Source of the DNA: a virus
Lineage: Duplodnaviria; Heunggongvirae; Uroviricota; Caudoviricetes
Length of the DNA: 34,243 nt
Reading direction: 5' to 3' (one strand)
IMG/VR virus record: IMGVR_UViG_2859810971_000006
Span: 1 to 34,243 of that record
The position numbers and the translations under genes were made by a program. Shown in pieces: positions 25,846 to 26,339 of the stretch (positions are counted from its first letter, which is position 1; every line of letters starts with the position of its first letter). A model generated the notes under the pieces. It was not told the origin of the DNA. It searched no databases and saw only the letters and a program-made list of their open reading frames with translations.

Positions 25846-26079
25846 TTAATGCAGCCAGCTGTCGTCTTCCCACACCTTCTGCATAATTTTCATCACTTGC
25901 TTCCTTTCTTCGTCCAGTTGCAGTCCGGTCAGTTCCACACCGTTAGAGCTACCTTTGCGGATACGAATTACCGTTTTGGGATACAGGGGGCGCAGATTAC
26001 GGTAAAGCTCGGATTCAAGGGCGTCCAGGGTAGACTGGCTAATCTTCTGCTCTTTATCGATCATTATTTCAATGCGCAT
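25846..26079 (-). CDS. DinI-like protein (like the C-terminal domain of 186 Tum antirepressor)
   Basis: 78 aa from the ATG at 26079 (MRIEIMIDKEQKISQSTLDALESELYRNL...VWEDDSWLH); matches the DinI pattern MRIE..I.K...DAL..EL...WE.D.W; GAGGTGA Shine-Dalgarno. Confidence 0.8.
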   Translation of the reverse strand: MRIEIMIDKEQKISQSTLDALESELYRNLRPLYPKTVIRIRKGSSNGVELTGLQLDEERKQVMKIMQKVWEDDSWLH

Positions 26080-26089
26080 AAAAGTCACC

Positions 26090-26278
26090 TCAGCTGATGA
26101 CATCCATTGAGCGGTTGTATTCGTGGCTTCTGATTTTTGCCATGAGTTCATCAGTCAATTCAGAAACCCACTGCAGAGCCAGTCCCTTCTCTTCATCACT
26201 ACACTCACTGGCCGCTACAAGCTTAAGAAAAAAATCAATGCGCTGGAGCTTCAAAGACTCCAAAAAATAGTCCTGCAT
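26090..26278 (-). CDS. Small acidic protein, first gene of the LexA-controlled operon (possible Tum N-terminal part)
   Basis: 62 aa; strong AGGAGGAAAG Shine-Dalgarno before the ATG at 26278; LexA box about 45 nt upstream; stop is 11 nt before the DinI-like start. Confidence 0.5.
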   Translation of the reverse strand: MQDYFLESLKLQRIDFFLKLVAASECSDEEKGLALQWVSELTDELMAKIRSHEYNRSMDVIS

Positions 26279-26319
26279 CTTTCCTCCTATGACACCACAC
26301 GCAATACTGTATGCATAAC

Positions 26320-26339
26320 CACTGTTTATATTTACAGTA
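26320..26339 (-). promoter_or_regulatory. LexA operator (SOS box)
   Basis: cACTGTttatatttACAGta, a perfect CTGT-N8-ACAG with an AT-rich spacer; a half-site (TACTGTAT) lies 10 nt away; sits on the promoter region of the small-ORF/DinI-like operon. Confidence 0.7.

Follow-up and report, generated by a model that had tools for sequence, protein, structure and literature searches.

The window (the whole stretch of DNA analyzed here, 34,243 nucleotides) carries between gene A and cos what we read, at a probability of about 85%, as an SOS operon of two cistrons under LexA repression, of the tumA-tumB type known from Fels-2 and PSP3, working through the switch mechanism proposed below. The evidence is given by the operator sequences and their conservation, the homology of the two ORFs to both halves of Tum of phage 186, the purifying selection on each ORF and the type of the repressor. 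A first-pass annotation of this DNA had described a 186 Tum-like, LexA-controlled SOS induction module accompanied by a 186-type CI; the homology of both ORFs to the Tum halves supports this description, with a correction for the strand, the features of the module lying on the minus strand. Overall, the feature is an ordinary intact copy of the already described tumA/tumB SOS operon and is, as such, already known.

The upstream neighbor of the operon is the replication gene A (26432-28873, minus strand; Phage_GPA, E 7e-128), separated from the first ORF by an intergenic region of 153 nt. On the other side lies the cos cohesive-end site (25623-25641), 15/19 identical to the annotated cos of 186 and with similar flanks, and, reading the operon 5' to 3' on the minus strand, the end of the portal gene comes beyond cos. 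The placement of the module between gene A and cos, proposed in the first annotation, is confirmed. The first ORF, a tumA-like gene of 62 aa encoding a predicted antirepressor (26090-26278, minus strand), is located downstream of gene A and next to cos, which is the position of a Tum/TumA gene, and the strong Shine-Dalgarno noticed earlier is found as GGAGG at 26283-26287 (minus strand), 4 nt before the ATG and invariant in the relatives. The second ORF, the tumB or dinI-like gene (25846-26079, minus strand), begins 10 nt after the tumA stop and encodes 77 aa; its DinI-like nature had been recognized correctly, its size (given as 78 aa) and the gap (given as 11 nt) had not. As read from the sequence, it has a Shine-Dalgarno of its own, GAGGTG (26086-26091, minus strand), overlapping the tumA TGA stop. 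A hairpin covering this stop and the dinI Shine-Dalgarno (26084-26101) was considered as a translational-coupling element and rejected, its z of -1.15 being not significant and the structure not being conserved in relatives.

Directly after the stop of the dinI-like gene, we observed a stable hairpin (25801-25843, minus strand; dG -23.5 kcal/mol, z -3.15) without a U-tract, which the terminator scan did not call and whose stem is preserved, through compensatory changes, in relatives from Klebsiella and Salmonella. It is likely an operon terminator or an RNA-stabilising stem. In the window, the space that separates the dinI-like gene from cos/portal (25460-25846) is empty. In relatives, it is occupied by cargo that varies from phage to phage: 813R9 has a Hypoth_Ymh-domain protein there, 500465-1 a TIR-domain protein, Fels-2 two hypothetical genes and 186 orf97.

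We then consider the 62-aa protein. BLASTP of this ORF gave no match to 186 Tum or to PSP3 TumA; BLASTP of PSP3 TumA against 186 Tum was also blank, which indicates that the method is too insensitive for TumA proteins of about 60 aa. By profile, the ORF belongs to phrog_698 (E 5.9e-38) and also matches phrog_8554 and phrog_1993, and residues 1-70 of 186 Tum match the same PHROGs (phrog_1993, 1.5e-23; phrog_8554, 3.4e-12; phrog_698, 5.9e-6). We represented the 62-aa family by an alignment of 28 diverse relatives of the ORF, and the other family by PSP3 TumA together with the N-terminus of 186 Tum and the "tum protein" of a Yersinia phage; hhalign matched the two alignments with a probability of 97.0% (E 1e-10), pairing residues 5-43 on either side, and with 94.8% when a smaller alignment was used. 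The identity between TumA and the Tum N-terminus is only about 21%, and the core common to both families is approximately LQRI-x-L-x2-[RK]-L-x6-C-x3-[DE]-[KR]-x-[LI]-A-L-x-W-[ILV]-x-E-L. Taken together, and judging from sequence profiles, the 62-aa ORF and the N-terminal half of 186 Tum, which lies outside the DinI-like part, are homologous. The first-pass annotation had asked for an alignment of both ORFs with 186 Tum and DinI and had counted a lack of similarity of the first ORF to the Tum N-terminus among the grounds for abandoning its reading; both ORFs align, the 62-aa one by profile to Tum 5-43 and the 77-aa one to Tum 71-145, and a check limited to BLAST would wrongly have led to abandonment.

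No family was found for the 62-aa ORF in Pfam, NCBIfam or PADLOC. The AlphaFold2 model is a two-helix hairpin (helices 2-23 and 28-61; pLDDT 88), for which Foldseek against the PDB returned generic helical hairpins only, all with E of 0.8 or above. TumA-like genes stand alone behind a LexA box, without dinI, at the same genome position in ESSI-2, ESSI2_ev015 and a Yersinia phage, in agreement with TumA being an autonomous antirepressor. The first gene of the pair is an autonomous unit.

The 77-aa protein matches the Pfam DinI family (PF06183) over profile positions 1-63 of 63, with E 6.6e-23 and 81.3 bits for a cut-off of 24.2. It also matches E. coli DinI (PDB 1GHH) over its full length (E 2.7e-6) and aligns with residues 71-145 of 186 Tum at 41% identity (E 3e-24). 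Its score against the NCBIfam equivalog for chromosomal DinI (42.7 bits) is under the cut-off of 111 bits, and the protein is for this reason a paralogue-type member of the DinI family and not dinI itself. Membership in this family suggests that it may bind RecA filaments.

The presumed target of the antirepressor is the CI repressor encoded at 32226-32795 (plus strand; alternative start 32205). Its assignment to the 186 type in the first annotation is borne out by matches to the helix-turn-helix domain Phage_CI_repr (E 2.7e-30) and the C-terminal domain Phage_CI_C (E 3.6e-29), and it is 32% identical to 186 CI. The domain search found no S24 peptidase domain in this protein; RecA-stimulated self-cleavage is therefore unavailable to CI, and an antirepressor is the expected route of induction. 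In short, the partner repressor is a CI of the 186 type that lacks a domain for RecA-dependent self-cleavage.

Across Fels-2, Cartapus, 813R9 and three Klebsiella phages, TumA is 97-98% identical. The CIs of these TumA-bearing phages are 37-55% identical to the window CI overall, the N-terminal domains being better conserved (64-76%) than the C-terminal ones (28-42%). Because the CIs of phages with a near-identical TumA are only 37-55% identical, the action of the window TumA on the window CI is assumed. The N-terminal domains of these CIs contain an almost invariant stretch, SKST-x-A-x-R-x2-RD-x-FPA-x-W-x-IQCALETG, the first part of which differs in the CI of 186, a phage with a Tum of a different type. 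This pattern is compatible with a TumA that recognises the N-terminal domain of CI and serves several immunity types, which we regard as a lead and not as a finding; it may equally come from exchange of the gene A-tum block among phages by recent recombination.

The same pattern bears on an alternative reading of the operon, in which the two genes are SOS-modulating cargo, DinI and a small helical partner acting on a host target, be it RecA or some other, and the phage repressor not being inactivated. DinI homologues act on RecA and not on repressors, as established for E. coli DinI, and the full-length match of the 77-aa protein to DinI fits this reading, as does the intact state of the module in a defective prophage; moreover, a nearly invariant TumA facing such divergent CIs is unexpected for a specific protein-protein inhibitor. 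However, the almost invariant N-terminal segment of these CIs could be the common target. The homology of TumA is with the half of 186 Tum lying outside the DinI-like part, and TumA-like genes that lack a dinI neighbor are also preceded by LexA boxes and keep the same place in the genome. In addition, PSP3 tumA is annotated for UV induction and is reported as an antirepressor: Lemire et al. (2011; PMC3121763) describe tum as split in two in Fels-2 and PSP3 and attribute antirepressor activity to the upstream PSP3 gene, citing a personal communication at second hand. We therefore hold the cargo reading to be improbable and retain the tumA-tumB operon.

At the promoter of the 62-aa ORF, the near-consensus LexA operator announced earlier was recovered as box 1 at 26320-26339 (CACTGTTTATATTTACAGTA; the minus strand reads TACTGTAAATATAAACAGTG), which overlaps the putative -10 and agrees with the 20-nt LexA consensus TACTGTATATATATACAGTA at 17 of 20 positions. 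No other such site exists in the whole 34 kb window, and 100 shuffles yielded none. Taken by itself, the CTGT-N8-ACAG core is not significant, with 0.57 expected per window and at least one in 42 of 100 shuffles, so that the weight of box 1 is carried by the 20-mer match and by conservation. A LexA box was present 5' of the tumA homologue in all 12 related phage loci, from at least seven Peduoviridae genera, as CTGT-N8-ACAG in 11 of them and as the one-mismatch variant CTGT-N8-CCAG in the twelfth (L012); box 1 is kept across these genera although the flanks diverge.

A second box (box 2, 26305-26324; CAGTGGTTATGCATACAGTA on the minus strand) matches the consensus at 14/20 positions and overlaps box 1; it had escaped the first annotation, and the operator is thus double and not single. 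The 16-mer cores extend over 26322-26337 for box 1 and 26307-26322 for box 2, with base 26322 common to both; this is the layout of the colicin-type double SOS operator, two 16-mers sharing one base at or just downstream of the -10. Box 2 was found in all eight Fels-2-type relatives checked, and a single LexA box only in 186, PSP3, ESSI-2, ESSI2_ev015 and the Yersinia phage. We observed an intact double operator in 72 of 80 viral contigs, a set retrieved by a single-protein scan, and not by operator, in which the copies are all 98-100% identical; seven more contigs differ by one base, and most of the variation falls at the center of the box 2 spacer, where LexA makes few contacts. A search for the double-box pattern in viral contigs returned 120 matches, 106 of them followed by a TumA-like ORF. 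On sequence evidence, we think that box 2 is functional, and LexA would be expected to bind the window operator from what the literature reports for 186, PSP3 and Fels-2.

Among the 80 near-identical contigs, the eight without an intact double operator are L145, L153, L158, L172, L183, L200, L216 and L217; L145 has lost box 1, and the seven others have a single-base change in a conserved LexA half-site. They could be naturally derepressed variants or variants with an altered threshold. Another double-box operator (TTCTGTTTATAAATACAGTGGATTTGAATACAGTG) is located 5' of an unrelated 267-aa ORF in the viral contigs L110, L124, L129 and L130.

The -35 and -10 hexamers of the SOS promoter are putative and were assigned solely by analogy with the annotated p95 of 186, the -10 of which is also TACTGT. 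The candidate -35, TTTACA (26357-26362, minus strand), is placed 17 nt upstream of TACTGT, and in an alignment of eight sequences TTTTACA is invariant and the spacing fixed. The consensus promoter scan called none at the operon, where the hexamers are weak (-10 TACTGT).

With a 50-nt operator query against plasmids, we obtained matches of 83-89% identity in small mobilisable plasmids, directly 5' of the colicin R and pesticin genes. The matching positions are 1501-1542 in L021 and 1501-1541 in L022. The operators of these bacteriocin genes are likewise two 16-mers sharing one base, of nearly the same sequence (TACTGTACATAAAACCAGTGGTTATGTGTACAGTA for colicin R and TACTGTAAATATAAACAGTGGTTATGCATACAGTA for the window). 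Outside the operator, the likeness extends over no more than a few flanking bases, and the gene controlled is a bacteriocin there and a prophage antirepressor here. Double boxes of colicin genes bind two LexA dimers cooperatively, with tight and delayed induction (PMC2994835).

These observations leave little room for the LexA-like sequence being a chance AT-rich palindrome, with the operon expressed constitutively or by read-through from gene A. The number of bare cores expected in the window and the lack of a called consensus promoter would fit such an origin, but the 20-mer match is absent from shuffles, the box is conserved in at least seven genera with diverging flanks, and the sequence is nearly identical to LexA-regulated bacteriocin operators. 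In addition, the counterpart in 186 is annotated as the SOS-dependent p95 with a LexA site, and the p95-tum unit has been used as a UV-inducible anti-CI module (PMC7708051). A chance match is, in our opinion, very improbable, and LexA control of the operon remains the preferred reading.

The first annotation had hesitated between a frameshifted tum gene and a bicistronic variant, and our results retain the second and discard the first. We aligned the module with those of Fels-2, SopEPhi, SEN8, two Klebsiella phages and the E. coli phage 813R9. The relatives (85-98% identity) always encode 62 + 77 aa, the spacer being 10, 11 or 13 nt long, and the relative frame of the two ORFs varies among them (1, 2, 1). 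Since these spacers change the relative frame, a single ancestral frameshift or indel cannot explain the layout, and the single-base indel that was to be sought in relatives is replaced by a constant layout. Substitutions in comparison with more distant relatives, counted by codon position, gave for example 9/3/24 in the first ORF and 9/7/35 in the second; the third-position bias in both ORFs indicates purifying selection on each in its own frame. The C-terminus of TumA is also conserved at the protein level.

In the viral contigs retrieved by protein similarity, 78 of 80 have the layout of 62 aa, 10 nt and 77 aa. Among 1.84 billion representative proteins, we found 67 relatives, nearly all stand-alone proteins of about 50-100 aa; within the reach of this search, no fused Tum-like form of about 146 aa was among the 67 matches, and the few longer ones match by a short segment or by one end. 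In the window, a stop codon, the 10-nt spacer and a change of frame separate the two genes, in place of one ORF of about 146 aa. The stretch 26090-26151, called overlap-compatible in the first annotation, comes down to an upstream ATG in the dinI frame. That the two ORFs are a single 186-type tum broken by a one-base frameshift, and so an inactive antirepressor, is suggested by their correspondence to the two halves of Tum, by their different frames 10 nt apart and by the upstream ATG extending the dinI frame to 26151, yet it is close to negligible in view of the constant sizes with frame-changing spacers, the selection on both proteins, the Shine-Dalgarno of the dinI-like ORF, the layout shared by the contigs, the missing fused form and the two genes annotated in the PSP3 record. 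The two-cistron arrangement is genuine.

The closest described system is Fels-2 of Salmonella LT2, in which STM2728 and STM2726.1 occupy the same slot between gene A and cos and encode proteins 97% and 100% identical to those of the window; the spacer is again of 10 nt, and the double LexA operator is shared as well. Fels-2 differs by additional cargo genes that separate dinI from the portal gene, by a CI only 38% identical to the window CI, and by the absence of the IS1 insertions and of the portal nonsense codon described below. In PSP3, two cistrons are located behind a LexA box, downstream of gene A, at the same position as the window module; the record describes tumA as "similar to 5' end 186 tum; UV induction of prophage" and tumB as "similar to dinI and 3' end of 186 tum". 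The PSP3 and window TumA families align by profile, whereas PSP3 TumA has 60 aa and no BLASTP match to the window ORF, and its LexA box is single (19/20 to consensus) where that of the window is double.

As in the window, the tum gene of 186 (p95 SOS operon) is controlled by a LexA-repressed promoter between gene A and cos, and the 186 record annotates a LexA site at the same position as box 1. [quoted passage not shown] Phage 186 also makes the DinI-like part separately (Tum95.5), from an internal Shine-Dalgarno and a GTG start, which can be compared with the Shine-Dalgarno of the window dinI-like gene. In contrast to the window, 186 has one fused gene of 146 aa, a single LexA box and orf97 downstream. 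The dinI-gfoA and gftA operons of the Gifsy prophages are, like the present one, LexA-controlled and combine a DinI homologue with a small antirepressor, but dinI comes first, in reversed order, and the antirepressors and repressors are of other families (PMC3121763).

Regarding the state of the prophage, we observed two identical 768-bp IS1 copies in direct orientation in the early lytic operon, at 29263-30030 and 31032-31799. The former is in a truncated DNA methylase gene (28843-29196) and the latter between the cox/apl-like gene (31877-32080) and cII (30527-31045). The Zn-finger, orf80 and gpB-like genes, located between fil and dam in relatives, are absent in the window. In the portal gene Q (24417-25460), an in-frame stop (24852-24854) takes the place of the Gln found in relatives (YWFV*YSL vs YWFVQYGM), so the prophage is probably unable to make capsids. 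The prophage is probably defective: the SOS module is intact, but its induction would not give viable phage. The left part of the window (1-3066) is host chromosome, encoding a DUF1418 protein, a glutaredoxin and an Asp-Al_Ex/TrkA_C permease, which places one prophage end between approximately 3066 and 3611. Among the tail genes, 10680-11864 encodes a 394-aa acyltransferase of the Acyl_transf_3 family, which may be lysogenic-conversion cargo (O-antigen acetylation).

We propose the following mechanism for the operon. In an undamaged cell, two LexA dimers would occupy the two overlapping boxes of the operator, box 1 covering the -10 and box 2 the transcription start, and the promoter would be off. 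Upon DNA damage, active RecA would lead to the self-cleavage of LexA and to transcription of the operon. The 62-aa two-helix TumA-like protein would bind the 186-type CI and block its binding to DNA, and the early lytic promoter would be derepressed. The 77-aa DinI-like protein, co-translated from its own Shine-Dalgarno, would bind RecA filaments and tune the SOS signal. The interactions of TumA with CI and of the DinI-like protein with RecA are proposed from the literature on 186, PSP3 and Fels-2. In the window copy, this switch would fire without phage yield, the prophage being broken.

A broader idea, possible although we consider it doubtful, is that in Fels-2-type tumA operons the bacteriocin-like double LexA operator gives an all-or-none, late firing in the SOS response, with TumA as a generic antirepressor against the conserved N-terminal domain of CI. 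If this were true, even a dead prophage could, upon SOS, induce in trans co-resident P2-like prophages of other immunity. The double operator and the pairing of one TumA with many CI types both bear on prophage cross-induction; they leave the understanding of this class of switch unchanged.

The main value of these results is for annotation. We found the window module in 1125 of 5426 complete E. coli genomes at any coverage and in 1083 at a coverage of at least 80%, that is, in about one fifth of complete E. coli genomes. In RefSeq, the module is labeled "DinI-like family protein | hypothetical protein". The 62-aa gene, still a "hypothetical protein" there and in most phage records, can be named as a TumA-type antirepressor, and a TumA-like gene marks a P2-like prophage as SOS-responsive and not as non-inducible in the manner of P2.
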